This document shows, one piece after another, positions 2,426-41,162 of a stretch of DNA of 64,000 nt. The DNA is from an uncultured Candidatus Saccharibacteria bacterium (GTDB lineage: Bacteria > Patescibacteriota > Minisyncoccia > Phycocordibacterales > UBA5272). Numbering within the stretch: the stretch's first letter is position 1; each line of letters starts with the position of its first letter. The notes beneath the pieces are model-generated. The model was given only the letters and a program-made list of their open reading frames with translations. It made no database searches and was not told the DNA's origin. The stretch spans positions 12,752 through 76,751 of the forward strand of contig CAYGDA010000002.1 of assembly GCA_964348515.1 (NCBI GenBank). The letters run 5' to 3'. The translations under genes and the position numbers were made by a program.

Positions 2426-4620
2426 TTATGAGAACAGATATTAAAAAATTCGCCAAGTTTACAACAATTGTTGTTTTTGTTTTGTCGTTGCCTGTGAGCG
2501 TGAGCGCGGCAATCAAAACCTCTGCCTCCGTTCCCGGGCCCACAAAAGGTCTTGTAGGTTACTGGACACTTGATGGCAAAGACACGAACTGGTCTGCCAA
2601 TACTACATCGGATAAAAGCGGTCAGGGGAATACGGGAACGCTTATATCAATGAGCACAACAACCAGTCCCAGACAGGGAATAATTGGTCAGGCGCTGAAA
2701 TTCAACGCAAGTGGCCGTGTAAATGTACCTAATTACAACATAAACTCAAATCAAATCACGGTTAGTTTTTGGTTTAACACGGATGACGCTAATACGGTGC
2801 GGCGGATAATTGAACATGATTGGAATGTTGGAGGTGTATTTACTACACACATTAACTCAGGCACGGTAAACGCATGTTTCAATGGTACGTGTAGTCCGAT
2901 GTTGACGGCTCCAATTGTTGCTAATAAATGGTATCACCTCGTACTGACTTATAGTGGAACTACAGCCCGAATGTATTTGAATGGTGTTCAGCAGGCTCCG
3001 GCGAATTATGGGACAGCTATTGCAAACTCAACGCATGATATTTTTATCGGGAGTTCGAGCTTCCCCTTCAGTGGCATGATTGACGATGTTCGCATGTATA
3101 ACCGTGCGTTGTCTGCAAGAGAAGTAATAAGTCTTTATAACCAAGGTGCCGCGGGAATTAAATCAGGAGCGAGCCAAACAAGCGCGAATGTCCCGATAAA
3201 CAGCGGTCTTGTCGGCTACTGGCCCATGGACGGGAGAGATGTGAACTGGACTGCAAACACGACGGCGGACAAAAGCGGGCAGGGAAATACAGGCACCCTC
3301 ATTAATATGAGTACAACAACTTCTCCCTCGCAGGGGGTAATCGGTCAGGCTCTTAATTTCAATGGCTCTAATTATGCAGTGACAGCCAACAATGACGCTC
3401 TTAATTTCGGCACAGGCCCGTTTTCTTTTTCCGTATGGGTTAATGCGAATAGTTTAACGGCTAATGCAGATGGGGTATTTTCAAAAGACTCATATGCCGG
3501 GGGTAATTCATATACCGGGTATCTCGTTAATGTACGCGCCGGTCCAACATGGAGTTTTGAAACGCGTAATGTTGTCTCTGGTGCCGGTCCTGATAATGTC
3601 GTGTTAAGCGCGTCTAACGCAACAACCGGGTGGACGCATATTGTAGCAGTGCGGAGCGGAAATTCTCCCGCAGTATTGCGTTTATATATTAATGGTGTTT
3701 TGTCCAACACAACAACTGAAGGCTCTGTAACTGATGTTTCCAATTCTGCAGGATTTACTATAGGAAACTTAAATTCAGGTCTCCCGTCACAATATTTTAA
3801 CGGCAAAACAGACGATGTTCGTGCTTACAACCGCGCGCTTTCCGCAAGCGAAATAAAGCAGCTTTATCAACAAGGCGCGGCTGGGCTCAAATCAGCTTCA
3901 AGCCAGACGGGTGCAAATGTTCCCATAAACAACGGGCTCGTTGGCTATTGGCCGTTTGACGGCAAAGATACAAATTGGACAACGGGTATGACGGCTGACA
4001 AAAGCGGACAAGGAAACATGGGCACGCTTGTTAATATGAGTACTACTACTTCTCCAGCGCAGGGAAAGATTGGACAGGCTTTTAGATTTGGCGGAGCAAC
4101 AAGTTATATTAATGTGGGCAATCCCGCGTCTTTGTCTTTCTCTAATCAGTCGTTTTCCGTGAGCTCCTGGGTAAGGCTAAATACTGTTCCTACAGCCGAC
4201 GGAAACGACATCGGGATTGTTGCGGACTACAGAAATACTAACGCACGATGGTTTCTTTATAAATTTAGAAATGCCGCGGGTACATTTGCTTTCGCTCTTG
4301 ATACTAACGGGGCGTGGTCGCCGGACAAGACAGCTTTCGGCTCAACTGTTCCCGTGACTAACAGGTGGTACCACGTAGTGGGTGTGTATGACCATTCTAC
4401 GGGGAATGCTTTGATTTATGTGAATGGAGTTTTTGAAAATAATTCCGGGGGGAGTCCTATTACAATCGGGGCGGTTAATGATGTGACAATCGGTAATTGG
4501 TATAGTTTGGACGGACTCGGCGGAACCAGCGGACCTAATGGAGATATTGATGATGTGCGCATTTACAACCGTGCGCTTTCGGTCACGGAAGTTAAAAAAC
4601 TTTATAATTTGGGTCGTTAG
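2422..4620 (+). CDS. Secreted LamG-domain protein with three tandem ~220-aa internal repeats
   Basis: N-terminal signal/TM (FTTIVVFVLSLPVSVSAA). Three repeats each start GLVGYW.(L/M/F)DG.D.NW..N.T.DKSGQGN.GTL..MSTTTSP.QG.IGQA and end DDVR.YNRALS..E...LY. Its ATGA overlaps the upstream stop, suggesting translational coupling. Confidence 0.7.
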   Translation: MIMRTDIKKFAKFTTIVVFVLSLPVSVSAAIKTSASVPGPTKGLVGYWTLDGKDTNWSANTTSDKSGQGNTGTLISMSTTTSPRQGIIGQALKFNASGRVNVPNYNINSNQITVSFWFNTDDANTVRRIIEHDWNVGGVFTTHINSGTVNACFNGTCSPMLTAPIVANKWYHLVLTYSGTTARMYLNGVQQAPANYGTAIANSTHDIFIGSSSFPFSGMIDDVRMYNRALSAREVISLYNQGAAGIKSGASQTSANVPINSGLVGYWPMDGRDVNWTANTTADKSGQGNTGTLINMSTTTSPSQGVIGQALNFNGSNYAVTANNDALNFGTGPFSFSVWVNANSLTANADGVFSKDSYAGGNSYTGYLVNVRAGPTWSFETRNVVSGAGPDNVVLSASNATTGWTHIVAVRSGNSPAVLRLYINGVLSNTTTEGSVTDVSNSAGFTIGNLNSGLPSQYFNGKTDDVRAYNRALSASEIKQLYQQGAAGLKSASSQTGANVPINNGLVGYWPFDGKDTNWTTGMTADKSGQGNMGTLVNMSTTTSPAQGKIGQAFRFGGATSYINVGNPASLSFSNQSFSVSSWVRLNTVPTADGNDIGIVADYRNTNARWFLYKFRNAAGTFAFALDTNGAWSPDKTAFGSTVPVTNRWYHVVGVYDHSTGNALIYVNGVFENNSGGSPITIGAVNDVTIGNWYSLDGLGGTSGPNGDIDDVRIYNRALSVTEVKKLYNLGR

Positions 4621-14773: not shown

Positions 14774-15013
14774 TTACACTCCGAGTACCGCGGTAATCTT
14801 CTCCCGGTTGAAACCCACAAAAAACTGCCCGTCTATCTCAATTATGGGAACGCCTTGTACAGGAGAACCCATCCTTTGCGAAAGCTCGGGGATAATTTCA
14901 GGGTTTTTGGTAAGATCATGTTCTTTGTAATCAACGTTTTTATCCTTGAAAAATTGTTTGGCGGCGTTGCAATAGACACACGTAGGGGTTGAGTATATTA
15001 TGACGTTTTTCAT
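14774..15013 (-). CDS. Glutaredoxin-like protein (CxxC thiol-disulfide oxidoreductase)
   Basis: 79 aa with YSTPTCVYCNAAKQFF active-site motif and a GVP cis-Pro motif. Lies directly upstream of tRNA-Arg on the same strand. Confidence 0.75.
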   Translation of the reverse strand: MKNVIIYSTPTCVYCNAAKQFFKDKNVDYKEHDLTKNPEIIPELSQRMGSPVQGVPIIEIDGQFFVGFNREKITAVLGV

Positions 15014-15202
15014 ATTTTAGTATTTTGAAAACTGATTAAAGTCCCGGGGTTTCCTAGCCGAAAAGAGACGGCAGTGACCAGGCAATCATGCCCAAAATCA
15101 CTATGATACTAAGGAATGCCCACATGATTGTAATGACTTTTTTACTTTTCTTTTGGAACAGCATATAAGGTATGATGTAAACGAAAGAACTATAGCAGGC
15201 AT

Positions 15203-15601
15203 ATGAGAGAATTTCAAGAAAGAAACAGGAGAAAGAACTTCCTTTATTCAAAACCGGTACTTTTCGCACTTTTTGCCCTTGTCTGGGTATTTGGGAGTGC
15301 TGCCTATTCAATGTACGAAAAAGCTTCTTACACAAAGGATTTACGCGACAAAGCTAAAAATGAATACGAACGCCTTGCTGTTAAAGAGGCTTCAGTTATT
15401 GAAAAAACAAGGTTACTTTCATCGGAACGCGGGAAAGAAGAGATTTTAAGAGACCAGTACAGATTTGCAAAAGCTGACGAAGGGGTAATGGTAATAGTTG
15501 AACAGACCGCCTCTTCAAGCCCTCAAACTCAGGTAAAATTGGACTGGTTTGAGCGTATGCGCCATGCTATAGTTTCTTCCGTCGCGAGTATTTTTGAATA
15601 A
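15203..15601 (+). CDS. Septum formation initiator family protein (FtsB/DivIC-like)
   Basis: Single N-terminal TM, a coiled coil, and a C-terminal motif EILRDQYRFAKADEGVMVIVE resembling FtsB (ARE.LGYVKPGE.V). The start could be an internal Met. Confidence 0.5.
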   Translation: MREFQERNRRKNFLYSKPVLFALFALVWVFGSAAYSMYEKASYTKDLRDKAKNEYERLAVKEASVIEKTRLLSSERGKEEILRDQYRFAKADEGVMVIVEQTASSSPQTQVKLDWFERMRHAIVSSVASIFE

Positions 15602-15615
15602 ATTTTTCAATAAAA

Positions 15616-15688
15616 GCGGGATTAGTTTAGTGGTAGGATGACTGCTTCCCAAGCAGTAGGCACGAGTTCGATTCTCGTATCCCGCACC
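15616..15688 (+). tRNA. tRNA-Gly(CCC)
   Basis: GCGGGAT...ACTGC-TTCCCAA-GCAGT...ACGAG-TTCGATT-CTCGT-ATCCCGC-A-CC. Anticodon CCC, partial CCA. Confidence 0.8.
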
Positions 15689-15692
15689 GGTT

Positions 15693-16307
15693 ATGAATAA
15701 AAAAGTTTCGGTTTCAATTTTAATTATATTGGTTTGTTTTGGTATATATTGGTTTTTTGGGGACAACGTTGAAATTAAAAACTACCCTCCGCACGAAGGT
15801 AATGTAGTTGCGTTCGGTGACAGTCTGGTTTCGGGGAACGGCTCAACACCGGGCAATGATTTTGTTTCGCTTCTTTCTGTAAAAATAAACGAACCCATAA
15901 TAAATCTTGGAATTTCCGGAAATACCACAAGAGACGGTTTGGCCAGAATCGACGAGATATTTGATAAAAACCCGCGCATAGTTCTGCTTCTGCTTGGAGG
16001 TAATGATTATTTAAAAAGAATTCCCAGTGAAGAAACATTTAAAAATTTGCGGGAAATTATTTCCCGTCTGGAGGAAAAGGGAATCCTGGTGGTTTTGCTC
16101 GGCATACGCGGCGGAGTATTGGTGGATCATTTTGATGCGGATTTTGAGGATTTGGCCAGGGAAAATGGTACCGCTTACGTACCTGATGTTTTGGACGGGA
16201 TTTTTGGCAAAAATAATCTGATGTCGGATACTATTCATCCCAATGATGAAGGGTATAAAATAATAGCGGACAGGGTTTTTACCGTTGTCAGTAAGGTTTT
16301 GAGGTGA
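15693..16307 (+). CDS. SGNH/GDSL hydrolase (lysophospholipase L1 / arylesterase-like)
   Basis: Signal/TM N-terminus. Block I VVAFGDSLVSGNG, block III GGNDY and block V DTIHPNDEG match the GDSL family. Confidence 0.8.
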   Translation: MNKKVSVSILIILVCFGIYWFFGDNVEIKNYPPHEGNVVAFGDSLVSGNGSTPGNDFVSLLSVKINEPIINLGISGNTTRDGLARIDEIFDKNPRIVLLLLGGNDYLKRIPSEETFKNLREIISRLEEKGILVVLLGIRGGVLVDHFDADFEDLARENGTAYVPDVLDGIFGKNNLMSDTIHPNDEGYKIIADRVFTVVSKVLR

Positions 16308-20958: not shown

Positions 20959-21317
20959 GAAAATATTAACAAAACAATTCCGTTAAAAAATAATTTCCTT
21001 TCTCTGTTTTTTTGTCTCCAATATCTGATTTTGAGTTATCCACACTTTTCTTCAAAAAAATATTGTATATACGTTTTATATATTAGATAATGTATGTAGG
21101 ACGCGCACGGCATCATAAAAAAATTTTGGACACGCAAGTGTCTCCGCGGTCGATGATGCAGAAGTGAGCGTTACTTACTTAAAAAAAACATGGCAGCAAA
21201 AAAGAAAAAGGCAAAGAAGGCAGCGAAGAAACGCAAATAGTTCTCGTTGTTTTGCCAGAAAATCCCCCGCGCTCCCAAGCTGGGGGATTTTCTTTTTGTT
21301 TGTTAGAATGCCCCAGT

Positions 21318-23831
21318 ATGAAGTGGCTTAAGTCAATACTTGGAACCCCGGAGGATAAAATCCTGCGCAAATACAAGCCGATTTTAAATAAGATAAACTC
21401 GCTCGAGGAGGGGATGGAAAAGCTGACCCAGGATGATTTCAGGAGCAGGACTGAAGTTCTGAAGAAGCGTTTGAGCGACGGGGAAACTCTTGATGACATT
21501 TTGCCGGAGGCTTTTGCGCTTGTCCGCGAAGCATCAAGACGCACTCTCGGTGAGCGTCATTATGACGTGCAGCTTGTCGGTGGTATTTCTCTCCATGAGG
21601 GGAACATTACTGAGATGCGCACAGGTGAAGGAAAAACTTTGGTGGCCACATTGCCCGCGTATTTAAACGCACTCGAAGGAAAGGGATTGCACGTCGTCAC
21701 GGTAAACGATTATCTTTCCCGCCGTGATGGTGTGTGGATGGGGCAGATATACAACTACCTTGGACTCTCAATCGGTATCTTAAATCACAATGTTTCCTAT
21801 ATTTACGACCCGGCTCATTCCGACAAAGACAAGGAGCGCGACGAGACAGGGTCATTCCACGTGGTTCATGAATTTTTGAGACCGGTTTCCAAGAGGGAGG
21901 CTTATGCCGCGGACATCACTTACGGCACGAATAATGAATTCGGGTTTGATTATTTACGGGATAATATTTCTTACAATGAGGCGGATGTTGTTCAGCGCGG
22001 ATGGAATTACGCCATAGTAGACGAAATCGACTCTATATTAATAGACGAGGCTCGCACTCCGCTTATTATTTCAGCGCCGTCGGCCGAGTCGGAAAATCTG
22101 TATGAGGTATTTGCCCAACACGCCAGAAAATTCAATAAGGAAGAAGATTACACCGTTGACGAGAAGTTCAAGCAGATACAACTTACGGCTGAGGGCATAG
22201 CCAAAGCGGAAAAACTGCTGAATGTAGACAATATATATACGGAGAAGGGGATGAAGTACGTGCATCACCTGGAAACTGCCGTAAGGGCCAAGGCTTTGTA
22301 TTTATTGGACAAGGATTACGTAGTGCGGGACGGGGAGGTTGTTATTGTTGACGAATTTACGGGCAGACTCCAGCCCGGGCGCCGCTGGTCGGAGGGGCTC
22401 CACCAGGCTATAGAGGCTAAAGAGGGGGTTCATGTACAGAAGGAGTCGCGGACTTTGGCATCCATTACCTTCCAGAACTACTTCAGGTTCTATAAGAAGC
22501 TTTCCGGCATGACGGGTACAGCCGACACTTCAGCGGAAGAATTTGCCAAGGTATACGGTCTCCAGGTGGATAAGATTCCCACAAACAAAGCCGTTCAGCG
22601 TATTGACCATACAGATTTGATTTTTCAGACGGAGAAAGGAAAATTTCAGGCTATTACCAAAAAAATCCGGGAGCTTAACGAACACGGACAGCCGGTTCTT
22701 GTTGGTACCGCGTCAATTGATAAGAATGAAATTTTGTCGGAATATTTGAGGCGCGAAGGAATAAAACACGAACTCTTGAACGCCAAGAATCACGAACGTG
22801 AAGGCGAAATTATAGCGCAAGCCGGGCGGAAGGGTGCGGTTACCATAGCGACAAATATGGCCGGCCGCGGTGTGGATATTAAATTGGGAGGTAACCCGGC
22901 AAATAAAGAAGCCGCGGATGAAGTACGGTCTCTCGGTGGACTTTTTGTTCTGGGTACGGAGAGGCACGAAGCGCGCCGCATAGACAACCAGCTTCGCGGG
23001 CGCAGTGGCCGCCAGGGAGATCCGGGGGAAACACAATTTTATGTTTCTCTTGAGGATTCTCTTATGCGCGTGTTTGCGTCGGACACCGTAAAAAACATGA
23101 TGGGACGTTTTGGCATTCCCGAAGATGAGCCGATTGATTCACGGCTGGTGGCCAAAGCACTGGAGAGCGCTCAGGCAAAAATAGAAGGACACAACTTTGA
23201 TTCGCGCAAAAGCGTTTTGCAGTTTGACGATGTTCTTAACCACCAGCGCGCCACAATTTACACACGCCGCCGCAAAATCCTTATGGGGGGAATGGAAGAA
23301 GCGCGAGAGTACGTTATGTCCGTAGCCGAGGCAGACGAAGAATTATTGCAAAAAATAAACGAGAAAACAGGCAAAATAGGCGTAGAACTTTTCTATAAAA
23401 TTATGCGCAGCGTAGCTCTCCAGACGATTGATTCCCTGTGGATGGAACATTTGGAGGTTATGGATTATCTGCGCAGTTCCGTGAACTTGCGCGCTTACGG
23501 CCAGCGCGATCCTTTGGTTGAGTATAAAAAAGAGGGACTCCGTCTTTTCCGCGACATGGAGGCGACACTGGAAGGAAGAATGATTGAGTTTATTGAACAT
23601 ATTGAAGAAGTCGCCAAGGCGATGGAGCCTGCGCCCAAGGCGGTTTATGACACGAAAAATATACAGGAAGGATTTGAAGGAGGCGGGGATGTGCCCTCCG
23701 GCGGTGTTACTGTGCATAATGAAGAAAAGGTAGGGCGAAATGACCCGTGCCCGTGCGGAAGCGGAAAAAAGTATAAAAAATGCGGGGATTTGAACACGGA
23801 GGAGCATCAGAGACTAATGAATGGGAAATAA
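21318..23831 (+). CDS. secA: Preprotein translocase ATPase SecA
   Basis: MKWLKSILG start (the track ORF extends upstream to 21252 but the SecA N-terminus begins here). DEAD-like motor motifs and a C-terminal zinc finger CPCGSGKKYKKC. Confidence 0.9.
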   Translation: MKWLKSILGTPEDKILRKYKPILNKINSLEEGMEKLTQDDFRSRTEVLKKRLSDGETLDDILPEAFALVREASRRTLGERHYDVQLVGGISLHEGNITEMRTGEGKTLVATLPAYLNALEGKGLHVVTVNDYLSRRDGVWMGQIYNYLGLSIGILNHNVSYIYDPAHSDKDKERDETGSFHVVHEFLRPVSKREAYAADITYGTNNEFGFDYLRDNISYNEADVVQRGWNYAIVDEIDSILIDEARTPLIISAPSAESENLYEVFAQHARKFNKEEDYTVDEKFKQIQLTAEGIAKAEKLLNVDNIYTEKGMKYVHHLETAVRAKALYLLDKDYVVRDGEVVIVDEFTGRLQPGRRWSEGLHQAIEAKEGVHVQKESRTLASITFQNYFRFYKKLSGMTGTADTSAEEFAKVYGLQVDKIPTNKAVQRIDHTDLIFQTEKGKFQAITKKIRELNEHGQPVLVGTASIDKNEILSEYLRREGIKHELLNAKNHEREGEIIAQAGRKGAVTIATNMAGRGVDIKLGGNPANKEAADEVRSLGGLFVLGTERHEARRIDNQLRGRSGRQGDPGETQFYVSLEDSLMRVFASDTVKNMMGRFGIPEDEPIDSRLVAKALESAQAKIEGHNFDSRKSVLQFDDVLNHQRATIYTRRRKILMGGMEEAREYVMSVAEADEELLQKINEKTGKIGVELFYKIMRSVALQTIDSLWMEHLEVMDYLRSSVNLRAYGQRDPLVEYKKEGLRLFRDMEATLEGRMIEFIEHIEEVAKAMEPAPKAVYDTKNIQEGFEGGGDVPSGGVTVHNEEKVGRNDPCPCGSGKKYKKCGDLNTEEHQRLMNGK

Positions 23832-23864: not shown

Positions 23865-25163
23865 ATGTCAGATTTAACGAAAGACGCTAGTCTGAACACT
23901 TCTTATTGCCAAGAGTTAGAAGCTCAGAGTGTTGTAAATCGCGGCCTTTGGTTTGCTAAATTTATTAGAAATAATAAAAAAATAATTATTGACGTATTAA
24001 CTACTTATGAAATATATAGAGTTGCTAATGATGAAATATCCAGAACTCTTGATTTATTAGAAAATTTAAACGAAAACAAAGAATACTTTGAAAAGAAAAT
24101 TGGAACAACCGTTTCTTTTTTACCCATAAATCAACCATTATATGCTTTGGCTTGTTTCGGTATCGTTCCGGCTTTAATGTCGAAACAGGTGTATGTGCGT
24201 CCACCAGCGATAGCGTGGGGCATGATTAATGAACTGGTTAAGGTTATATCTTTAAATACATTTTTCCCAAATCTGTTTATATCTAACCAAACGCGGAATG
24301 AATTTATAAATCAACACAAAATGAGAAAGGGGATTAATAGAGCCGATGTTGTAATTTTTACCGGTAAGCCAGAAAATGCTTATATTACCCAAAAAGCTTT
24401 TGGGGAATCGGTTTTATTTATAGGAAATGGGGCAAGCCATAATCCCGTCGTTATCTCAAGAGGTGCTGATATAGATGCTTCTGTGGAGGCAGTATTAGAG
24501 GTCCAACTATATAATCAAGGAGCTGATTGTGCTGCCCCAAATTCAATACTCGTAGAATCTAGCGTTTATAATAATTTTATTAAGAGGTTAAGAATAGCCG
24601 TAAAGGGAGTAAAAGTAGGTGGCTATAAAGACAAGGAGACTATTGTAGGTCCATTTCTTGAAAAGAAACATTTAAAAGAAGTGGAAGCATTACTAATGGA
24701 ATACGATAGGTTTATAGACCACTCTACTCGGCCTGTTTTAAGACGTGAAGAAAATATTATTGCTCCGATTATTATAAATAAACCGTTAGTTGAAGGTGGA
24801 AATTATGTTGAATGGTATGCCCCGGTTTTTATAGTTCAAAAATATGAAAAAGATTCAGATCTGCATCTTTATTTTGAAAATCCTGTTTATGAAAAACAAG
24901 CTGGTTACATAACTCTTTTTGGGAAAAGTGATTATGTCGAAGGGCTAATAGGAAAAAAGTTTTATTCTGGCAAAATTCTTCACCCAGCGGATACTATACT
25001 TAGAAATACACACCTTCATGCGTTTGGTATGGAACGTGGAGTAAAACCATATGGTGGTTACGGAGAAAACAGTTCATTTGTTAGCTGGGGTGGTATTACT
25101 TTACCTAAACCAACGCTGCCACAACGAGAAATATACGATTATTTGGTCAAAAATAAATTTTAA
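23865..25163 (+). CDS. Aldehyde-dehydrogenase-superfamily reductase-like protein (LuxC/ProA/CoA-acylating ALDH-like); AT-rich cassette gene 1
   Basis: The ALDH Rossmann motif (VVIFTGK) and the catalytic-Cys motif (YNQGADCAAPNSILV, compare F.N.GQ.C.A..R) are present. The general-base Glu motif ELGG is replaced by FIGNG. 432 aa, about 33 % GC. Confidence 0.5.
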   Translation: MSDLTKDASLNTSYCQELEAQSVVNRGLWFAKFIRNNKKIIIDVLTTYEIYRVANDEISRTLDLLENLNENKEYFEKKIGTTVSFLPINQPLYALACFGIVPALMSKQVYVRPPAIAWGMINELVKVISLNTFFPNLFISNQTRNEFINQHKMRKGINRADVVIFTGKPENAYITQKAFGESVLFIGNGASHNPVVISRGADIDASVEAVLEVQLYNQGADCAAPNSILVESSVYNNFIKRLRIAVKGVKVGGYKDKETIVGPFLEKKHLKEVEALLMEYDRFIDHSTRPVLRREENIIAPIIINKPLVEGGNYVEWYAPVFIVQKYEKDSDLHLYFENPVYEKQAGYITLFGKSDYVEGLIGKKFYSGKILHPADTILRNTHLHAFGMERGVKPYGGYGENSSFVSWGGITLPKPTLPQREIYDYLVKNKF

Positions 25164-25810
25164 TGAAACTAATCTCTAAAATAGAAAATGCCCGCTATTC
25201 TGCAACCATATCTCATAATAATTATTTAGGAGAATGTATTTCTGTTGCATATGAATTAACAGGAGAAGAGGTGAAGGAAGGAGGATTTACGGATAAAACT
25301 GTGTTGATTTTATTAAAAATTAAAAATGAAGAATTTCCTTTTGAAAATAATAAACGAGAGACTTTATTTGGGAAAGGGACTTTTGTGGGGAATAAAGTAC
25401 CATTAAGAATAATGAGTTCGTGTATGACCGGACTATTGGGTGATAAAATGTGTGAATGTCATGATGATATGGTTAAGTATTTAAAGACGCTTGGGGCTCG
25501 AGACGAGGGTATATTTGTTTATTTGCCCCAAGAAGGACAAGGTAGGGGTCTTAAGGTTAAACTTAGAGACCATAGGTTACAGTATGGTTTTGATGATATG
25601 GGAAAAAGAATCGTCCCAAAGACTTTTAGAGAGGCTACGTCGTATTTAATACCCAATAGTAAATTTGATATAAGAAAGTTCGGGTTTCTGAAAGACTGCT
25701 TCAGTCTTCTTGGCCTTGATATGTTTGAGTTTGGTTGGCTTGGGGGCGAAAACAGGATTAAACAACTTAAAAGTGAAACCGGTTTAAGGGTAAGTAATTT
25801 AAAATTTTAA
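25163..25810 (+). CDS. GTP cyclohydrolase II (RibA)-like protein; AT-rich cassette gene 2
   Basis: RIMSSCMTGLLGDKMCECH matches the zinc site (RVHSECLTGD...CDCG), and YLPQEGQGRGL matches YHRQEGRNIGL. Overlaps gene 1 at TAATG. Confidence 0.65.
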   Translation: MKLISKIENARYSATISHNNYLGECISVAYELTGEEVKEGGFTDKTVLILLKIKNEEFPFENNKRETLFGKGTFVGNKVPLRIMSSCMTGLLGDKMCECHDDMVKYLKTLGARDEGIFVYLPQEGQGRGLKVKLRDHRLQYGFDDMGKRIVPKTFREATSYLIPNSKFDIRKFGFLKDCFSLLGLDMFEFGWLGGENRIKQLKSETGLRVSNLKF

Positions 25811-26658
25811 TGAGTCAAATTCCTTTTGAAGGTTACGACTTCGAAAAAATAAAGAAAGAATTCAATGCCGTTCTTTCAGAGGTTTTTGATAAGGATATAG
25901 AATATGCTTTTTTTAGTGGAAGTGTGGCTTATGGCGGAGGAATAGTAAAAAAAAGTGATATTGATATAGCTATCGTACTAAAAGAAAAAGAGTATTCGTT
26001 GTCTAAATTTATTGATTTTGGAAAACACTATATCGAGATAAACAAAAAAAATAATTTCGTTCCCGACGTTACCTTCCCTGGAGAATTTCTTACGCCACTT
26101 TTGGTTTCAGATGCTATTTCTGGCAGGGGTTTTTCAGTAAAAGATAATATTTTATATTTACCTATTGCATCCACTGAATATTATTTGGCTGACCCAGAAC
26201 GTTGGTTCAGGGCTTGGTTAAGTATGTTGACTTTTAGTGTTTTTGTAACTGGTTCTGTTTCAAAATTTGAAGAGGCAAAAAGAAATGCATGGAGGACAGT
26301 TTTACTATTTTTGTTTTCCACACCTCAGTTCCGTGTAGTTAGCTTAAGTGACTTAACGGATATGCTTTCTAATGGGGATAACAAATGGCTAGGTTTTGGG
26401 GTCACAAAGAATTATTGTCTTTTTCGTGATTATGAAACAAAGATAATTAAAAATACTTTAGTCGGATTAATCCAAGAGGGTTTTATAGAGGAATCAGGTG
26501 GTTTTTATAGACCGGTCCGTAAGGCCATTAATATGTGGAATTACTCGGTTGTTCAGAAGATAAAAGATAAAAGCATAAGAAAGGCTAATTTTTTAATAGA
26601 CCTTGATAATACTAATAAAATATCTAATTCATTTAATGTTGGAAGAATTGGTACTTAA
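25810..26658 (+). CDS. Pol-beta-superfamily nucleotidyltransferase with C-terminal helical domain (ANT/LinB/AbiEii-like size); AT-rich cassette gene 3
   Basis: Motif FFSGSVAYGGGIVKKSDIDIAIVL (hG[GS]-x10-DhD). 282 aa. Overlaps gene 2 at TAATG. Confidence 0.6.
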   Translation: MSQIPFEGYDFEKIKKEFNAVLSEVFDKDIEYAFFSGSVAYGGGIVKKSDIDIAIVLKEKEYSLSKFIDFGKHYIEINKKNNFVPDVTFPGEFLTPLLVSDAISGRGFSVKDNILYLPIASTEYYLADPERWFRAWLSMLTFSVFVTGSVSKFEEAKRNAWRTVLLFLFSTPQFRVVSLSDLTDMLSNGDNKWLGFGVTKNYCLFRDYETKIIKNTLVGLIQEGFIEESGGFYRPVRKAINMWNYSVVQKIKDKSIRKANFLIDLDNTNKISNSFNVGRIGT

Positions 26659-26797: not shown

Positions 26798-27076
26798 ATG
26801 GAAAATCTGGAACAAAGAATAGAAAAAATAGAGGAAAGAAATTCACGTGTAGAAATTGACAAAGCGTGGGAAACGAGCTGGACCCGCAGAGTTTTATTGG
26901 CATTGCTTACGTACTTGGCAATAGGGTTGTATTTGTGGACAATTGAAATATCAAGACCCTGGCTGAACGCGATAGTCCCGACTGTCGGTTTTATGGTCTC
27001 GACCTTAACGATGCCGTTTTTCAGGGGATTGTGGTTAAAGTTTGTGTGTAGTACAAAAAAACATAAAGAGATATGA
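26798..27076 (+). CDS. Small coiled-coil plus 2-TM membrane protein
   Basis: SD AAGGGG 7 nt upstream. MENLEQRIEKIEERNSRVEIDKAWETSWTRRVLLALLTYLAIG, then two TM helices. Confidence 0.45.
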   Translation: MENLEQRIEKIEERNSRVEIDKAWETSWTRRVLLALLTYLAIGLYLWTIEISRPWLNAIVPTVGFMVSTLTMPFFRGLWLKFVCSTKKHKEI

Positions 27077-27726
27077 AGTTACTCCTTACGTCCGGCGGTC
27101 TGACGAACAAATCTATAGAGAAAGCTTTGTTTGACCTGGTTGGTAAAAAACCGGAAGAGACATCGCTGGTTTTTATCCCAACGGCTTCAAACATTGAAAC
27201 GGGGGACAAGGGTTGGTTTATTGACGATCTTTCCAACCTTAAAAAACAGAATTTTAAGTCAATCTGCATTGCAGATATTTCCGCCGTTCCGGAAGATATT
27301 TGGAGGCCTCAAATTGAAGAGGCCGACGTTCTGTTTTTCGAAGGAGGAAATACGTATCACTTGATGAGGTGGATAAACAAAACCGGTCTCGTAAGTATGC
27401 TTCCGGAACTGCTTAAAACAAAAGTATACGTAGGGTTGAGTGCGGGAAGCATGGTAACTAACCCGGACTTAGCGCTGAGGTTATCTCAAATAATATACGG
27501 CGATGATCTGGAGGAGGAAGCCATGGATGGGCTTAACTATGTGGATTTTTATTTTCTGCCCCATCTAAATTCACCGTTCTTCCCTGCGCGTATGGAAGAA
27601 AAAATCAGAGAGGTTGCCGGAACTTTATCCAGAAAAATATATGCTCTTGACGATCAGTCTGCTCTGAAGATTGTCGATGGTAATGTTGAAGTTATAAGCG
27701 AGGGGAAGTGGCTCGCTGTTAATTGA
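27073..27726 (+). CDS. Peptidase S51 family protein (dipeptidase E / cyanophycinase-like)
   Basis: LLLTSGG, FFEGGNTYHLMRW, and catalytic Ser context VGLSAGSM. 217 aa. Confidence 0.75.
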   Translation: MKLLLTSGGLTNKSIEKALFDLVGKKPEETSLVFIPTASNIETGDKGWFIDDLSNLKKQNFKSICIADISAVPEDIWRPQIEEADVLFFEGGNTYHLMRWINKTGLVSMLPELLKTKVYVGLSAGSMVTNPDLALRLSQIIYGDDLEEEAMDGLNYVDFYFLPHLNSPFFPARMEEKIREVAGTLSRKIYALDDQSALKIVDGNVEVISEGKWLAVN

Positions 27727-27732
27727 AATCAT

Positions 27733-28197
27733 ATGAAAAAAATTTTAACGCTTTGTTTGGTTCATAATCATCCGCAGGTTTTACTTGGTATGAAGAAACG
27801 CGGATTTGGTGCCGGACGCTGGAATGGTTTCGGAGGAAAAATTCAGGGAGAAGAAACAATAGAAGAAGCGGCGCGCCGTGAAATGTTGGAAGAGGCGGGG
27901 ATTGAACTTCAAGATATTGAGAAGAGGGGAATCATTGAGTTTGAATTCCAGGGGAACCCGGAAATTCTGGAGGTGCATATTTTCCGCTCGGAAAATTTTG
28001 AAGGTGAACCTAAGGAAAGTGAAGAGATGAAACCGGCATGGTATCACGTTGATGAAGTTCCGTTTGAAGAAATGTGGCCTGATGACATTCATTGGTTTCC
28101 TCTTTTTCTTGGCGGGAAAAAATTTAAGGGTAAATTTTTGTTCGGTCCCGGTGATTCTATTTTGGAGCAGGAGCTTTTTGAAGTTGAAGAGATTTAA
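27733..28197 (+). CDS. NUDIX hydrolase, MTH1/NUDT1-like (oxidised purine NTP pyrophosphatase-like)
   Basis: Nudix box GGKIQGEETIEEAARREMLEEAGI. The flanks RWNGFGGK and WFPLF closely resemble MTH1. Confidence 0.75.
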   Translation: MKKILTLCLVHNHPQVLLGMKKRGFGAGRWNGFGGKIQGEETIEEAARREMLEEAGIELQDIEKRGIIEFEFQGNPEILEVHIFRSENFEGEPKESEEMKPAWYHVDEVPFEEMWPDDIHWFPLFLGGKKFKGKFLFGPGDSILEQELFEVEEI

Positions 28198-28370: not shown

Positions 28371-28565
28371 ATGATCCCGGCTGCTTACAATGAATACCGA
28401 TGCAAGAAGTGCAATAAACTTTTTTTCAAAGGTATTTTAGTTGAAAGCGAGGTCGAGATTAAATGCAAAAAGTGCGGCTCTCTGGAAAAGATAAAAGGGA
28501 TTAATGCGGAGCAATTGCTTTGTTTAAAGCCCGTTTGTCCGAACAGGGTGGCGTTTCAGAAATAA
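28371..28565 (+). CDS. Small Zn-ribbon protein (phage Mu Com-like C4 finger)
   Basis: YRCKKCNKLFFKG...EIKCKKCGSLEKI shows the paired CxxC spacing characteristic of Com-family zinc fingers. 64 aa. Confidence 0.4.
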   Translation: MIPAAYNEYRCKKCNKLFFKGILVESEVEIKCKKCGSLEKIKGINAEQLLCLKPVCPNRVAFQK

Positions 28566-28681
28566 GTTTGCGCACTTTTGGTAAATAGGATGCAGAAGCT
28601 CTCGAAGCTCACAAACAAAGCGTGGGCGTTTTTTTATCTCTAATTTTATTAACTTTTATTAACGTTTTTATTCGCAAACCC

Positions 28682-30829
28682 ATGAGCAATTTAAAAGAAC
28701 CAACGAGTGCCTCTTTAACAGTCGCCAAACGGGATGGCCGTAATGTGCATTTTGATCCGGTTAAGATTACCAAAGCCATAGAGAGAGCCGCGGAATCAAC
28801 CGGGGAGTTCGGCATAACGGAAGCCAAAACTCTTACGGAGCAGATTACGCGTTACCTCGCTTCCGCGGAACTGGCCGGACATCAGGTGACTATCGAACAG
28901 ATTCAGGACATCGTTGAACGCACGCTCATGGGGGCCGGTTACTTTGTAACCGCCAAAGCATACATTCTTTACCGCGAAAAACGCCGCCAGTCACGCGAGG
29001 CGAAAAGCACTTTCATCGATGTTGAGAACACTATGAAAGAATATTTGGATAAATCCGACTGGCGGGTTAATGCGAATGCAAACCAGGGATATTCTTTGGG
29101 CGGACTCATACTAAATGCGTCCGGCAAGCTCATTGCCAATTTTTGGCTGAATAATATTTATAACGAACGCATTCGCGAAGCTCACCGGGAAGGAGATATG
29201 CATATCCACGACCTTGATATGTTTTCCGGTTACTGCGCGGGGTGGAGTCTGCGCCAGCTTCTTGAAGAAGGGTTCAACGGAGTATCAGGCAAAACGGAAT
29301 CCGCACCGCCGAAACATTTGGATGCGGCAATAGGGCAAATGGTTAATTTTCTCGGCACGCTTCAGAATGAATGGGCCGGTGCACAGGCATTTTCCTCGTT
29401 TGATACCTACCTTGCTCCGTTTGTAAAAAAGGATGATTTGCCTTACGCGGAAGTTAAGCAGTTGGTTCAGCAATTTGTATTTAATCTGAATGTGCCGTCA
29501 CGCTGGGGGACGCAGACACCGTTTACCAATATTACGCTTGATTGGATATGCCCTGAGGACATGAGAGAGAAAAAACCGTTTATAGGCAAGAAAATACTTG
29601 ATTTTGCCTACGGAGACTGCCAGAAGGAAATGGACATGATAAACAGGGCTTTTATTGAGGTTATGACGGAAGGGGATGTTAACGGCCGGATTTTTACTTT
29701 CCCTATTCCCACGTACAACATAACCAAGGATTTTGACTGGGAAAATGAAAACGCGGAACGCCTGTTTACCATGACGGCAAAATTCGGCATTCCGTATTTC
29801 CAGAACTTTATAAATTCCGATCTCAATCCGAGCGACGTGCGCAGTATGTGCTGTCGTCTTCAGTTGGATTTGCGTGAACTGCGGGTCCGCGGCGGCGGGT
29901 TGTTCGGCTCCGCTGAAATGACCGGCAGTATCGGAGTTGTGACTCTGAATCTTCCCCGCATAGGGTTTACTTCAAAAACCAAGAAAGAATTTTTTGAAAG
30001 ACTTGCCGAGCTTATGGACATTGCCAAGGAGTCTTTGGAACTGAAGAGAAAGGTTGTTAAAGAAAATATAGACAGAGGGTTGCTTCCTTACACTAAGCGC
30101 TATTTGCCGACACTCAACAACCATTTTGGAACCATAGGATTAAACGGAATGAACGAAGCAATTCTTAATTTCATGGGTAAAGACATTGCCGCTCCCGAAG
30201 GAAAAGAGTTTGCCATGGAGATATTGAGCTTTATGCGTGACCGCCTTGCCGACTATCAGGAGGAAACGGGCAACCTTTATAACCTGGAAGCAACGCCGGC
30301 AGAAGGGACAACTTACCGTTTTGCCAAAGAAGACAAAAAACGTTTTCCGAACATTATTCAGAGAGGTACGGCGCAGGCTCCTTATTACACAAACTCCAGC
30401 CACTTACCGGTTGATTATACTGATGATCCTCTGTTCGCCCTTGATCATCAGGATGAGCTTCAGAAAAGTTACACGGGGGGTACGGTGCTGCATCTTTTTC
30501 TTGGAGAAAAAGTAAACGATTGGAAAATGTGCCGTTCGTTTGTCAAAAAAGTGGCATCAAGATATCACCTGCCGTATTTTACTATTACTCCGACATTCAG
30601 TATTTGTCCTTCGCACGGCTATATAAGCGGGGAGCAGCCCACTTGTCCGACGTGTTCCGAGACAACAGAAGTGTGGTCACGCATAGTGGGTTATTTTCGT
30701 CCTGTCGGCGAATGGAACAAAGGCAAGAAAAGCGAATATGCGGACCGCACTGAATTTGTGGTTCCAAATCACTCAGTGTCAGAACGTGTCATTCCGGCGC
30801 CCGGGGTGAAAAAAGAGGCCTCATGCTGA
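28682..30829 (+). CDS. nrdD: Anaerobic ribonucleoside-triphosphate reductase NrdD
   Basis: N-terminal ATP-cone (VAKRDGRNVHFDPVKITKAIE), C4 zinc site (CPSHGY...CPTC) and a C-terminal glycyl-radical motif RIVGYFRPV. Start chosen at MSNLKEP, 60 nt inside the track ORF. Confidence 0.85.
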   Translation: MSNLKEPTSASLTVAKRDGRNVHFDPVKITKAIERAAESTGEFGITEAKTLTEQITRYLASAELAGHQVTIEQIQDIVERTLMGAGYFVTAKAYILYREKRRQSREAKSTFIDVENTMKEYLDKSDWRVNANANQGYSLGGLILNASGKLIANFWLNNIYNERIREAHREGDMHIHDLDMFSGYCAGWSLRQLLEEGFNGVSGKTESAPPKHLDAAIGQMVNFLGTLQNEWAGAQAFSSFDTYLAPFVKKDDLPYAEVKQLVQQFVFNLNVPSRWGTQTPFTNITLDWICPEDMREKKPFIGKKILDFAYGDCQKEMDMINRAFIEVMTEGDVNGRIFTFPIPTYNITKDFDWENENAERLFTMTAKFGIPYFQNFINSDLNPSDVRSMCCRLQLDLRELRVRGGGLFGSAEMTGSIGVVTLNLPRIGFTSKTKKEFFERLAELMDIAKESLELKRKVVKENIDRGLLPYTKRYLPTLNNHFGTIGLNGMNEAILNFMGKDIAAPEGKEFAMEILSFMRDRLADYQEETGNLYNLEATPAEGTTYRFAKEDKKRFPNIIQRGTAQAPYYTNSSHLPVDYTDDPLFALDHQDELQKSYTGGTVLHLFLGEKVNDWKMCRSFVKKVASRYHLPYFTITPTFSICPSHGYISGEQPTCPTCSETTEVWSRIVGYFRPVGEWNKGKKSEYADRTEFVVPNHSVSERVIPAPGVKKEASC

Positions 30830-31518
30830 TAGGAGGACTTCAAAAACTGTCTCTTATAGATTACCCCGACAAGGTGGCGGCGGTTGTTTTTACCAAAGGG
30901 TGTTTATTCCGTTGCCCTTTTTGCCATAACCCTGATTTGGTTCTGCACGAACGCGAAGTACCGGATTTGTTTGAAGAGACCAAGGAATACTTAAAAAAAC
31001 ATCATGAGTTTCTGGACGGAGTGTGCGTTACCGGCGGAGAACCTACCATACACAAAGATTTGCCTGAGTTTATAGATTTTGTGAAGGGGCTCGGTCTTTC
31101 TGTAAAATTGGATACAAACGGGGTGACGCCGAAAATGGTGGAAAAATTTTTGAAAGAAAAAAGCATAGATTATGTTGCGATGGACATAAAACACACCTGG
31201 GACAAGTATGATTCAATCGCCAATCTTGCCCCGGATAAAAAAGATTTTGTGGCCAGGTGCAAAGAAACATTCAGGATGGTGCAGGATTCAGGGATTGCTC
31301 ATGAGTGGCGCACTACGGTACTGCCGGGATATCACACAGACGATGATTTTTTGGAAATGGCTTCGCAAATGAAACCCGGGGAAAGTTATTATATTCAGGA
31401 TATAAGTTACGCGGTGACACTCAATCAGGGATTGGACAACACCAAACCGTCCGACGCCAAAGGAATAGCTTCCAAATTGAGAGTTAAATACCCGGGATTG
31501 TTTGTCGGTACGCGCTAG
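30823..31518 (+). CDS. nrdG: Anaerobic ribonucleotide reductase activating protein (radical SAM)
   Basis: CLFRCPFCHN (Cx3Cx2C) and GVCVTGGEPT. Overlaps the nrdD stop. Confidence 0.85.
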   Translation: MLIGGLQKLSLIDYPDKVAAVVFTKGCLFRCPFCHNPDLVLHEREVPDLFEETKEYLKKHHEFLDGVCVTGGEPTIHKDLPEFIDFVKGLGLSVKLDTNGVTPKMVEKFLKEKSIDYVAMDIKHTWDKYDSIANLAPDKKDFVARCKETFRMVQDSGIAHEWRTTVLPGYHTDDDFLEMASQMKPGESYYIQDISYAVTLNQGLDNTKPSDAKGIASKLRVKYPGLFVGTR

Positions 31519-39975: not shown

Positions 39976-40605
39976 ATGGAATTTCCAGCATCGTTCATTC
40001 CTAAAAAAACAATAGAAGAATCGCCAATCCGCCGCTCCTCGGCAGACTTTTTTACCGTTGTATCGACTATAGTTTTTTTGGTGTCAGTTCTGGGGCTTGT
40101 CGGGACGATTCTTGCGGAAAAGTATTATAAAAACAATATTTCCAAACTTGACGTAACCATTCAGAGAGAAGATAAGGCTTTTGATGAAAAAGCTATCGCT
40201 GAGCTTGATTCGCTTAGTAAACGTTTAGCTATAGTAAATGACCTTTTGTCAAAAGGGCATCACCCGTTGGTTTCCCGTATTTTCATATTACTGGAGAATG
40301 ACACACTGAAAAACGTTTATTATTCAACTTTCAGTTATAAACTGGATGAAATAAACGGAGTCCGCAGAGTTGTTTTGAAACTGGACGGGCAGGCCCGCGA
40401 CTATGCGTCCATAGCCATGCAATCTGAGATATTCCGGGCCAGCCCTTTCATAATAGACCATTCCTTTTCCGGGTTGGAAAACGGCAAGGGAGGTATAGTT
40501 TTTTCTCTTGTAATTCTGGTGAATCCCGACATTTTTAAATACGAAGAAGTTTCTGAAGATTCAATTTCGTTCAATTATGCCGGACAGGCGAAATTAAAAT
40601 TATAA
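39976..40605 (+). CDS. pilN: PilN-like pilus assembly protein
   Basis: Single N-terminal TM plus a periplasmic domain, at the expected position in the pilMNO order. Confidence 0.55.
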   Translation: MEFPASFIPKKTIEESPIRRSSADFFTVVSTIVFLVSVLGLVGTILAEKYYKNNISKLDVTIQREDKAFDEKAIAELDSLSKRLAIVNDLLSKGHHPLVSRIFILLENDTLKNVYYSTFSYKLDEINGVRRVVLKLDGQARDYASIAMQSEIFRASPFIIDHSFSGLENGKGGIVFSLVILVNPDIFKYEEVSEDSISFNYAGQAKLKL

Positions 40606-40610
40606 ACACC

Positions 40611-41162
40611 ATGTTCCGAGTAATTTTTAACACCCTTCTTATAGTCACGGCCGTCACGCTTTTTCTTATTTTTACCAGACCCCAGTATGATTCTTTGAGC
40701 AAGCTTCGCAGCACACTTTCGTCCAGGAATGACGTCGTTAATAATTCCGGCGCGCTCAAAGATGAGTTGCGCAAAAAACAGGCGGCCAAGAGCAGTATTG
40801 ATATAAACCTGATTGATAGACTCAACAAAATTGTTCCGGCCGACGTTGATTCCGTGTTTTTGATTATAGAAGTTGACGACTTGGCCCGTCGTTACGGGAT
40901 GTCTCTGAAAAGTCCGCGGTTTAGTTCTAAAGACGTGGTGTCTGACACCAGAGGTTTTCAGACAATAGATACAAAGCCGTATAATGTGTTTACTTTTGAA
41001 TTCGTGGTCGACGGTTCGTACGATAATTTTATGGAATTTTTGAGGGATGTGGAGCGCAATATGCGTTTATTTGACGTGACGGCAGTTTCCTTTATGACTC
41101 CGGAAAAAGGTAACACAATATCTTTCCGCGTTTCTCTAAACACCTACTGGCTTAAAAAATAA
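40611..41162 (+). CDS. pilO: PilO-like pilus assembly protein
   Basis: Single TM and a coiled coil, with conserved position. Confidence 0.5.
   Translation: MFRVIFNTLLIVTAVTLFLIFTRPQYDSLSKLRSTLSSRNDVVNNSGALKDELRKKQAAKSSIDINLIDRLNKIVPADVDSVFLIIEVDDLARRYGMSLKSPRFSSKDVVSDTRGFQTIDTKPYNVFTFEFVVDGSYDNFMEFLRDVERNMRLFDVTAVSFMTPEKGNTISFRVSLNTYWLKK

Follow-up and report, generated by a model that had tools for sequence, protein, structure and literature searches.

A rare, mobile gene cassette of Patescibacteria linked to lysyl-tRNA synthetase and its possible role in joining reduced lysine to a guanine-derived nucleotide

A 64,000-nt stretch from an uncultured Candidatus Saccharibacteria bacterium (contig CAYGDA010000002.1, positions 12,752 to 76,751; hereafter the window) carries three overlapping genes, which encode an aldehyde dehydrogenase (ALDH)-like protein (gene 1), a relative of the GTP cyclohydrolase RibA (gene 2) and a Pol-beta-type nucleotidyltransferase (gene 3). 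We propose, at a probability of roughly one in two for the reading as a whole, that the three genes are a copy without lysyl-tRNA synthetase (LysRS) of a four-component, LysRS-linked cassette that is rare, mobile and restricted to Patescibacteria, and that this cassette encodes a pathway for a small molecule in which reduced lysine is joined to a guanine-derived, ring-opened nucleotide.

RESULTS

Genes 1 to 3 recur as a cassette tied to lysyl-tRNA synthetase

The genes of the window are joined by TAATG stop/start overlaps, which had been described in an earlier reading of the sequence made without database searches (the sequence-only reading), and both junctions prove exact; AAATTTTAATGA is the repeated context common to the two. 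The features of the cassette are as follows.

23865–25163, + strand: gene 1, ALDH-superfamily oxidoreductase, 432 aa (open reading frame (ORF) and Pfam Aldedh)
25163–25810, + strand: gene 2, divergent RibA-type GTP cyclohydrolase, 215 aa (ORF and Pfam GTP_cyclohydro2)
25810–26658, + strand: gene 3, Pol-beta-type nucleotidyltransferase, 282 aa (ORF, nucleotidyltransferase motif and fold)
25161–25165, + strand: TAATG stop/start overlap of genes 1 and 2, read from the sequence, inside AAATTTTAATGA
25808–25812, + strand: TAATG stop/start overlap of genes 2 and 3, read from the sequence, inside AAATTTTAATGA

The same reading had called for a survey of gene neighbourhoods, which reveals that the gene set recurs in at least 10 loci and that its contexts are not defence islands. 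Nine of the 10 informative loci tie the cassette to LysRS, either by fusion to a class I enzyme (LysRS-I; two lineages) or by adjacency to a class II enzyme (LysRS-II; seven loci), the window being the exception. The arrangements outside the window are listed below, where :: denotes a fusion; partners other than ALDH and LysRS are a synthetase of the NRPS-independent siderophore (NIS) type, a short-chain dehydrogenase/reductase (SDR), an alpha-oxoamine synthase (AOS) and a transporter of the major facilitator superfamily (MFS).

L002/L003: ALDH::LysRS-I fusion (977 aa), gene 2, gene 3
L004: ALDH, gene 2, gene 3, LysRS-II
L005: LysRS-II, ALDH, gene 2, contig end
L013: ALDH, gene 2, LysRS-II, gene 3
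L015: ALDH::gene 3 fusion, gene 2, LysRS-II
L012 and L026: LysRS-II, ALDH, NIS synthetase (IucA/IucC+FhuF), gene 2, gene 3
L014: LysRS-II, SDR, gene 2, gene 3, AOS; no ALDH
L017: ALDH::LysRS-I, gene 3::gene 2, MFS transporter

The class I domain of L002/L003 scores 383 bits against TIGR00467 (cutoff 148) and matches 1IRX over its full length (E = 4e-85) in an alignment that takes in the HxGN and KMSGSKG motifs, and the class II enzymes of L004, L005, L012, L013, L014, L015 and L026 score 472–627 bits, all over the LysRS cutoff of 468. The linkage spans four gene orders and two classes of synthetase that are not homologous, and since both classes have joined the same cassette, a functional link with LysRS is indicated. 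Pairwise identities of the ALDH and of LysRS-II co-vary (r = 0.88).

Genes 2 and 3 always co-occur with an oxidoreductase; in L014 and in the further locus L027 an AOS and an SDR stand in place of the ALDH, the copies of the two loci being 53 and 44% identical, respectively. Besides the ALDH::LysRS-I proteins, fusions of the ALDH to gene 3 occur in five proteins, including P0010 and P0011 (44% identity, E = 4e-77), and fusions of gene 3 to gene 2 occur in P0145, P0147, L017 and L018 (E = 2e-40). Conservation in at least 10 loci together with these three kinds of fusion rules out a chance juxtaposition of the three genes. The window copies of genes 1, 2 and 3 are 43–56%, 37–56% and 37–65% identical, respectively, to cassette members elsewhere.

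Full-text literature searches returned no description of the cassette, of ALDH–LysRS fusions or of the tailed ALDH family introduced below; no riboflavin genes lie nearby and no PADLOC system is called, in keeping with the sequence-only reading, which had recognized no known pathway in the gene set. The components have known folds, and it is their combination that, as judged from sequence, appears to be new in kind, as it matches no described pathway or system; its function is deduced.

Gene 1 defines a family of ALDHs that lack the general base

Gene 1 matches Pfam Aldedh (PF00171) over residues 45–332 at 75 bits (cutoff 23; E = 5.8e-21) and 229 ALDH chains of the PDB at E < 1e-3, which confirms its earlier placement in the ALDH superfamily. 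Its motifs start at residues 165 (FTGK), 185 (FIGNG) and 219 (GADCAAPN); all motifs that had been quoted for the three genes are indeed present. On alignment to PDB 6c43, Cys222, Asn89 and Glu316 coincide with the catalytic Cys302, the oxyanion Asn169 and the NAD-ribose Glu399, whereas the position of the general-base Glu268 of the ELGGK motif, which hydrolytic ALDHs possess, is occupied by Asn188 (FIGNGASHNP). The loss of this Glu had been noticed from the sequence of gene 1 and is now found to be a trait of its whole family. With this replacement, the reading as an ordinary acid-forming ALDH was rejected.

Profile searches yield at least 337 strong relatives, and the counts given here and below refer to the best 120 matches, all of which have E < 1e-150 and are 42–56% identical to gene 1. 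The organism names attached to them all belong to Patescibacteria, the candidate phyla radiation (CPR): Woesebacteria, Parcubacteria, Paceibacterota, Peregrinibacteria and Zambryskibacteria. Cys222 and Asn188 are conserved in 120/120 and Asn89 and Glu316 in 119/120. In 88 of the 120, a C-terminal tail is present whose final ∼95 residues show homology to the very end of LysRS-I (E = 8e-14), and because of this tail such proteins are often named ‘lysyl-tRNA synthetase’ in databases. The others carry an N-terminal extension (14), are bare (8), are fused to gene 3 (5) or end in an unassigned tail (5); gene 1 is of the bare kind and carries no LysRS-type tail.

Tailed ALDHs that stand alone are found, for example, at L009:8001-9803 and L010:8001-9863, and in two lineages a HisKA/HATPase_c gene directly follows the tailed ALDH. 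A tRNA-synt_2 gene near the stand-alone ALDH of L010 encodes a non-discriminating AspRS rather than LysRS and was left out of the LysRS pattern.

Gene 2 retains the RibA catalytic set except for Tyr105

The RibA-like nature and zinc triad proposed for gene 2 are borne out. Pfam GTP_cyclohydro2 matches at 39.5 bits (cutoff 23.3; E = 5.3e-10), over residues 69–147 only, and the NCBIfam models for RibA score far under their cutoffs (49 versus 464, 41 versus 148 and 40 versus 206); homology to RibA is nonetheless full length, as indicated by subfamily alignments, and the relatives P0145 and P0149 cover positions 38–162 of the 165 of the profile. The motifs SSCMTG, CEC and YLPQEGQGRGL start at residues 85, 97 and 120. 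Aligned to PDB 2bz0 and 4rl4, the zinc ligands Cys87, Cys97 and Cys99 correspond to Cys54, Cys65 and Cys67 of RibA and are invariant in 16 subfamily sequences. Arg82, Lys133, Asp169 and Arg171, also invariant, correspond to R49, K101, D126 and R128 (the nucleophile), where the RibA reference past residue 117, which covers D126 and R128, is what we take to be its sequence.

His137 sits where RibA has the catalytic Tyr105. All nine cassette copies of gene 2 keep R49, C54, C65, C67, E92, K101, D126 and R128, whereas at the position of Tyr105 six have His, three have Met and none has Tyr. Type 1 copies (the window, L002, L004, L005, L013 and L014) combine the His with a GGENR-like segment in place of TNNPKK; type 2 copies (L012, L015 and L026) have the Met and are otherwise RibA-like, and the two types are only 20–28% identical. 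Spoonamore and Bandarian reportedly described in 2008 a Streptomyces RibA paralogue with a Tyr-to-Met exchange, in which the reaction is said to halt at the formamidopyrimidine nucleotide.

The family is small. A word-indexed search of 5.8 billion proteins found four clusters of close relatives, HMMER, run exhaustively on 1.84 billion representatives, gave ∼10 close members and ∼30 more distant full-length relatives, and a scan of the genome collection with gene 2 gave only a spurious 20-residue match (L001). Neither the window nor any related neighbourhood contains ribD, ribH, ribE or ribB, and a riboflavin operon was rejected as a reading.

One of the more distant homologues, P0149 (466 aa), is a fusion of a creatininase-family domain (PF02633, E = 1.3e-33) to a GTP cyclohydrolase II-like domain that lacks the Tyr. 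As the creatininase family includes the AFRPP formamidase BrbF (PMC9478397), the fusion fits an output of the GTP cyclohydrolase III type from a Tyr-less enzyme. Judged by its domains, P0149 could be the ‘missing’ bacterial GTP cyclohydrolase III, paired with an AFRPP formamidase, that is the topic of PMC9478397. A second RibA-like clade (P0150–P0179) has Leu at the position of Tyr105 and conserved C-terminal extensions of ∼90 or ∼300 aa without a Pfam match.

Gene 3 is an intact nucleotidyltransferase

Gene 3 has the motif and fold of a Pol-beta nucleotidyltransferase, and its comparison with aminoglycoside nucleotidyltransferases (ANT) in size and fold stands. The catalytic set is intact, with Gly37-Ser38, Asp50 and Asp52 (D-I-D, residues 50–52) and a third carboxylate at Asp86, and the catalytic core is followed by a helical middle domain and a C-terminal winged-helix domain. 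The fold resembles Tam41 and ANT(3'')(9), Tam41 being the closest. The family is rare (15 clusters).

A comparison with the AbiEii toxin had also been drawn. A Pfam scan at E ≤ 1 gave no AbiEii model and no antitoxin-like neighbour was seen, and an AbiEii/MenT-type toxin was rejected on these grounds. In PADLOC, gene 3 weakly matches PDC-S09 (4.6e-06) and CD-NTase models (9e-05), in the nucleotidyltransferase core only.

A gene-3-centred variant cluster is seen at L027:4383-8831, where genes for a GNAT protein, a methyltransferase, the SDR, a gene 3 homologue and the AOS-type pyridoxal phosphate enzyme follow one another and no gene 2 is seen.

The cassette is atypical in composition

The cassette has a GC content of 33.9%, against 45.8% in the remaining window, which corresponds to z = -10 relative to 279 other 2794-nt windows (mean 45.8%, sd 1.2%, minimum 41.7%). 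GC at third codon positions is 24–28% in the cassette, whereas secA, the S51 peptidase gene and nrdD reach 53, 45 and 49%, respectively, so the AT-richness and the A/T-ending codons remarked on earlier are both real. The GC contents of the cassette and its flanks in the eight genomes with usable flanks are:

window: cassette 34%, flank 46%
L002: cassette 34–38%, flank 43%
L012: cassette 30–35%, flank 39%
L013: cassette 34–38%, flank 50%
L014: cassette 42–45%, flank 48%
L015: cassette 41–47%, flank 52%
L026: cassette 37–39%, flank 57%
L017: cassette 53%, flank 54%

In seven of the eight the cassette is poorer in GC than the sequence around it, which supports its horizontal acquisition as a unit, surmised by the sequence-only reading from the window. 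LysRS is cassette-like in composition in L002, L012, L013 and L014 and host-like in L004 and L026. The stand-alone genes for tailed ALDHs are also somewhat GC-poor, and part of the bias may therefore be intrinsic to the ALDH family.

Two loci illustrate the dynamics of the cassette. The LysRS-II genes at L004:2940-4439 and L026:11775-13217 are 86% identical, yet their gene 2 copies belong to different types (type 1 in L004, type 2 in L026) and share 23% identity, their gene 3 copies share 32%, and L026 alone has the NIS synthetase; the cassette is turning over rapidly beside lysS. At L017:4283-11970 the MFS gene directly follows gene 3::gene 2, and downstream lie a ParB_N+N6/N4 DNA methylase gene and a weak terminase-like ORF, which suggests that a prophage or mobile element neighbours this cassette.

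Surroundings of the cassette in the window

The two neighbours named by the sequence-only reading are present as stated:

21252–23831: secA, upstream neighbour
27073–27726: peptidase S51 gene, downstream neighbour (Pfam, 3.6e-30)

At the borders of the cassette no flanking direct or inverted repeats, insertion scars, integrase or tRNA were found, and promoter-like and terminator-like matches around it are at chance level. Two genes downstream of the cassette, at 27733–28197, lies a NUDIX hydrolase gene, and in L014 one (2227–2748) lies just upstream of LysRS; its product may serve as an accessory pyrophosphatase, or its position may be coincidental. A 64-aa ORF at 28371–28565 with two CxxC pairs, zinc-ribbon-like, lies directly upstream of nrdD/nrdG (28622–31518, anaerobic ribonucleotide reductase). 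Milder dips in GC occur at 15001–16000 (39.9%), adjoining tRNA-Gly(CCC) and near tRNA-Arg(CCT), and at 40001–41000 (41.2%).

DISCUSSION

A possible route from lysine to a nucleotide conjugate

The chemistry that we propose is, in each of its steps, an interpretation of the gene linkages, fusions and residue patterns described above. In the partnership observed here LysRS would activate lysine, presumably as Lys-AMP or Lys-tRNA(Lys). Cys222 of the ALDH would accept the lysyl group as a thioester, the hydrolysis of which would be blocked by the Asn in place of Glu, and NAD(P)H would reduce the thioester to an alpha-amino aldehyde by the logic of LuxE/LuxC and of glutamyl-tRNA reductase. The sequence-only reading had guessed at an acyl-adenylate reductase, and the guess was a good one, the adenylate now being identifiable as lysyl. 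Gene 3, to judge by its fold, fusions and alternative partners, would place a nucleoside monophosphate (NMP), probably GMP from GTP, on an oxygen of the reduced lysine or on a phosphate, and gene 2 would open the imidazole ring of the guanine, probably halting at the formamidopyrimidine because Tyr105 is missing. The product would resemble lysyl-adenylate. Its free epsilon-amine might be further acylated by the NIS synthetase in some lineages and the product exported by the MFS pump in one, as suggested by the presence of these genes in L012 and L026 and in L017, respectively. For the window copy, a housekeeping LysRS encoded elsewhere would have to act in trans.

The order LysRS, ALDH, gene 3, gene 2 is suggested by the chain of fusions LysRS-ALDH-gene 3-gene 2. 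The last two steps may equally well run the other way round, with RibA chemistry on free GTP first and a Tam41-like transfer of NMP to the 5'-phosphate second. Enzymes of the ANT and Tam41 types attach nucleotides to the oxygens of hydroxyl or phosphate groups, and glutamyl-tRNA reductase is a tRNA-dependent analogue of the LysRS-plus-ALDH logic. A reduced amino-acid unit as the acceptor of gene 3 is supported by the replacement of the ALDH in L014 and L027, since AOS and SDR make up the classical route from amino acid through amino ketone to amino alcohol.

Several observations weigh against this route. The 64-kb window has no LysRS gene; the loci are not phylogenetically independent, as the 86% identity of the L004 and L026 LysRS genes illustrates; and the identities of genes 2 and 3 do not co-vary with those of LysRS (r ∼ -0.13). 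Gene 1 scores 19.5 bits against LuxC (PF05893), under the cutoff of 21 (E = 5e-4), and its best profile matches and nearest solved relatives, such as 6c43, are oxidative amino-aldehyde dehydrogenases, the reductive direction following solely from the lost Glu and the LysRS link. Most members of the ALDH family, including typical tailed ones, are single genes in housekeeping neighbourhoods, with neither gene 2 nor gene 3 beside them, so the ALDH has a separate role of its own, and the tRNA-binding role of the LysRS-I C-terminal domain is taken from general background knowledge. RibA chemistry normally acts on free GTP with release of pyrophosphate, which is a poor fit to gene 2 acting after nucleotidyl transfer. 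The ALDH would give an aldehyde whereas AOS and SDR would give an alcohol, a mismatch between alternative partners, and the LysRS kept without an ALDH in L014 fits resistance at least as well as supply.

Alternative explanations

The last point leads to a possible, although on balance unlikely, explanation in which the same or similar chemistry yields an antimetabolite directed at LysRS, a non-hydrolysable mimic of lysyl-adenylate that is in some lineages mounted on a siderophore-like ‘Trojan horse’ built by the NIS synthetase, with the linked LysRS serving mainly in self-resistance. Aminoalkyl adenylates are classical inhibitors of aminoacyl-tRNA synthetases (aaRSs), and the gene clusters for aaRS inhibitors (albomycin, mupirocin, agrocin 84 and indolmycin) carry an extra target synthetase; both count for such a role, as does the retention of LysRS in L014 though AOS and SDR replace the ALDH. 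The atypical GC that LysRS shares in L002, L012, L013 and L014 points to a co-transferred accessory copy, and the NIS synthetase (L012 and L026) and MFS exporter (L017) suggest a secreted product. However, LysRS in L004 and L026 is host-like in GC and housekeeping in appearance, the window copy goes without LysRS, and two LysRS genes in one genome were not demonstrated, as the view was of loci and not of complete genomes; moreover, the presence of ALDH and complete LysRS-I in one polypeptide, and of the tail on 88/120 ALDHs, favours channelling or tRNA binding over immunity. Roles of LysRS in supply and in resistance may coexist. That same tail, together with the winged-helix domain of gene 3, which could bind nucleic acid, and the housekeeping and translation genes amid which the stand-alone tailed ALDHs sit, would suit a function directed at tRNA(Lys) or Lys-tRNA(Lys) and related to translation, such as modification, repair, quality control or regulated consumption. 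We regard this as improbable: Rfam and tRNA scans detected neither tRNA(Lys) nor a riboswitch nor any further RNA close to a cassette, the NIS synthetase, MFS, AOS, SDR, GNAT and methyltransferase partners are typical of the biosynthesis of small molecules, and the sporadic, GC-atypical distribution fits an accessory trait. To our knowledge, no tRNA-modification pathway uses a ring opening of the RibA type.

It is rather more doubtful that the cassette is an entry into a cofactor resembling flavins, pterins or deazaflavins, in which gene 2 would supply a diaminopyrimidine ribotide to be combined with a lysine-derived amino-carbonyl and gene 3 would make a dinucleotide. Diaminopyrimidines do condense with carbonyls in the biosynthesis of lumazine, F0 and toxoflavin, gene 2 keeps the RibA catalytic set, and Tam41, whose fold is closest to that of gene 3, transfers NMP to phosphomonoesters, a class to which the 5'-phosphate of the RibA product belongs. 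Nevertheless, the 10 neighbourhoods contain no RibD, RibH, RibE, RibB or other cofactor genes, the loss of Tyr105 predicts a formylated 5-amino group that would block the condensation, and a cofactor pathway would not be expected to be so rare and so patchily distributed. Least credible is anti-phage defence or abortive infection, for instance by depletion of GTP or Lys-tRNA or by nucleotide signalling, to which we attach very little weight. The weak PDC-S09 and CD-NTase matches of gene 3, the mobility and atypical GC of the cassette, and the phage-like genes near L017 are in its favour, whereas genes 1 and 2 have no PADLOC match, no sensor or effector domains are encoded, the neighbours are housekeeping genes (greA, the mraZ/dcw cluster, secA and lysS) rather than defence islands, and IMG/VR, phage and plasmid collections hold no relatives bar one ordinary RibA-like stretch. 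A known defence system was rejected, since PADLOC calls none and only the nucleotidyltransferase core of gene 3 is matched, weakly; the anti-phage module that had been suggested from the sequence thus finds no backing in defence systems, genomic context or viral homologues. The stretch in question, unannotated at 2927–3307 of phage contig MT836348.1, is 31% identical to gene 2 (E = 2e-5), and the ALDH is matched at 3e-16 by phrog_15577, which has no assigned function; in either case the resemblance looks generic to the superfamily.

Implications

If the proposed pathway of lysine reduction and guanine transfer is correct, it would be the first case of an aaRS coupled, and even fused, to an ALDH-type reductase, a second and independent invention of the idea behind glutamyl-tRNA reductase. 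RibA-type opening of a purine ring would be used outside flavin and toxoflavin chemistry, and CPR bacteria, usually seen as biosynthetically minimal, would be passing among themselves a module devoted to a secondary metabolite. As a possible mimic of lysyl-adenylate, the product would be of interest as an aaRS-directed compound. A bolder and tentative version, to which we would give rather long odds, unites an aaRS-coupled ALDH acting as an ‘aminoacyl reductase’, O-nucleotidylation and guanine opening into the making of a lysyl-adenylate-mimicking antimetabolite, sometimes on a siderophore-like carrier, with the co-transferred LysRS as self-protection. Whatever the chemistry, a large family of Patescibacteria has been defined, that of mis-annotated, Glu-less ALDHs with a LysRS-I tail, which is directly testable.

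Comparison with known systems

Full-length aaRSs are embedded in or fused to genes of accessory metabolism, as here, in the biosynthetic clusters for valanimycin (VlmL/VlmA), albomycin, mupirocin and agrocin 84 and in LysX (MprF::LysRS). In such clusters the aaRS either is dedicated to supplying aminoacyl-tRNA or duplicates the target in a resistant form. We know of none among them that holds an ALDH, a RibA-type cyclohydrolase or a nucleotidyltransferase of the gene 3 type, and of none from Patescibacteria.

Gene 3 shares 9–14% identity with Tam41 CDP-diacylglycerol synthase and ANT(3'')(9)/AadA, at TM-scores of ∼0.33, and scores 11.9 bits against NCBIfam ANT(9) (cutoff 340), a resemblance of fold only; unlike those enzymes, it stands in a cassette without membrane or resistance context. 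Gene 2 has in common with RibA the zinc Cys triad and R49, E92, K101, D126 and R128. It differs in the His at 105, in the shifted Arg of the QEGxGRG motif, in GGENR for TNNPKK and in a distinctive N-terminal Y-x-A-T-P...LG-x-C motif, and it is never found beside riboflavin genes.

For gene 1 the closest parallels are functional. In LuxE/LuxC, P5CS (ProB-ProA) and HemA the carboxylate, made reactive by an enzyme that uses ATP or by its attachment to tRNA, is bound to Cys as a thioester and reduced by NAD(P)H to the aldehyde, and we propose the same here. The adenylate-forming LuxE hands the acyl group to the Cys of LuxC, a member of the ALDH family, which releases the aldehyde, and LuxC and ProA are, like gene 1, ALDH-superfamily members without the hydrolytic Glu (PMC12041015). 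Gene 1 is not itself a member of the LuxC or ProA family, its LuxC score being under the cutoff, and both the oxyanion Asn and the NAD-site Glu are retained in it; the fold of HemA is unrelated to it. The exchange of Glu268 for Asn seen in gene 1 is also that of ALDH6, the methylmalonate-semialdehyde dehydrogenase, where it eliminates the hydrolytic water, so that the Cys thioester survives and is handed on rather than hydrolysed (PMC12041015); gene 1, in contrast, has no similarity at the level of that enzyme in the NCBIfam scan and no CoA-related context, and its partner is LysRS. The cassette departs from LuxE/LuxC in that its acid is an amino acid, for which the activator is a canonical aaRS, namely LysRS of class I or class II. 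Fusion of activating enzyme and reductase is known from ProB-ProA and is found in the cassette as LysRS-ALDH.

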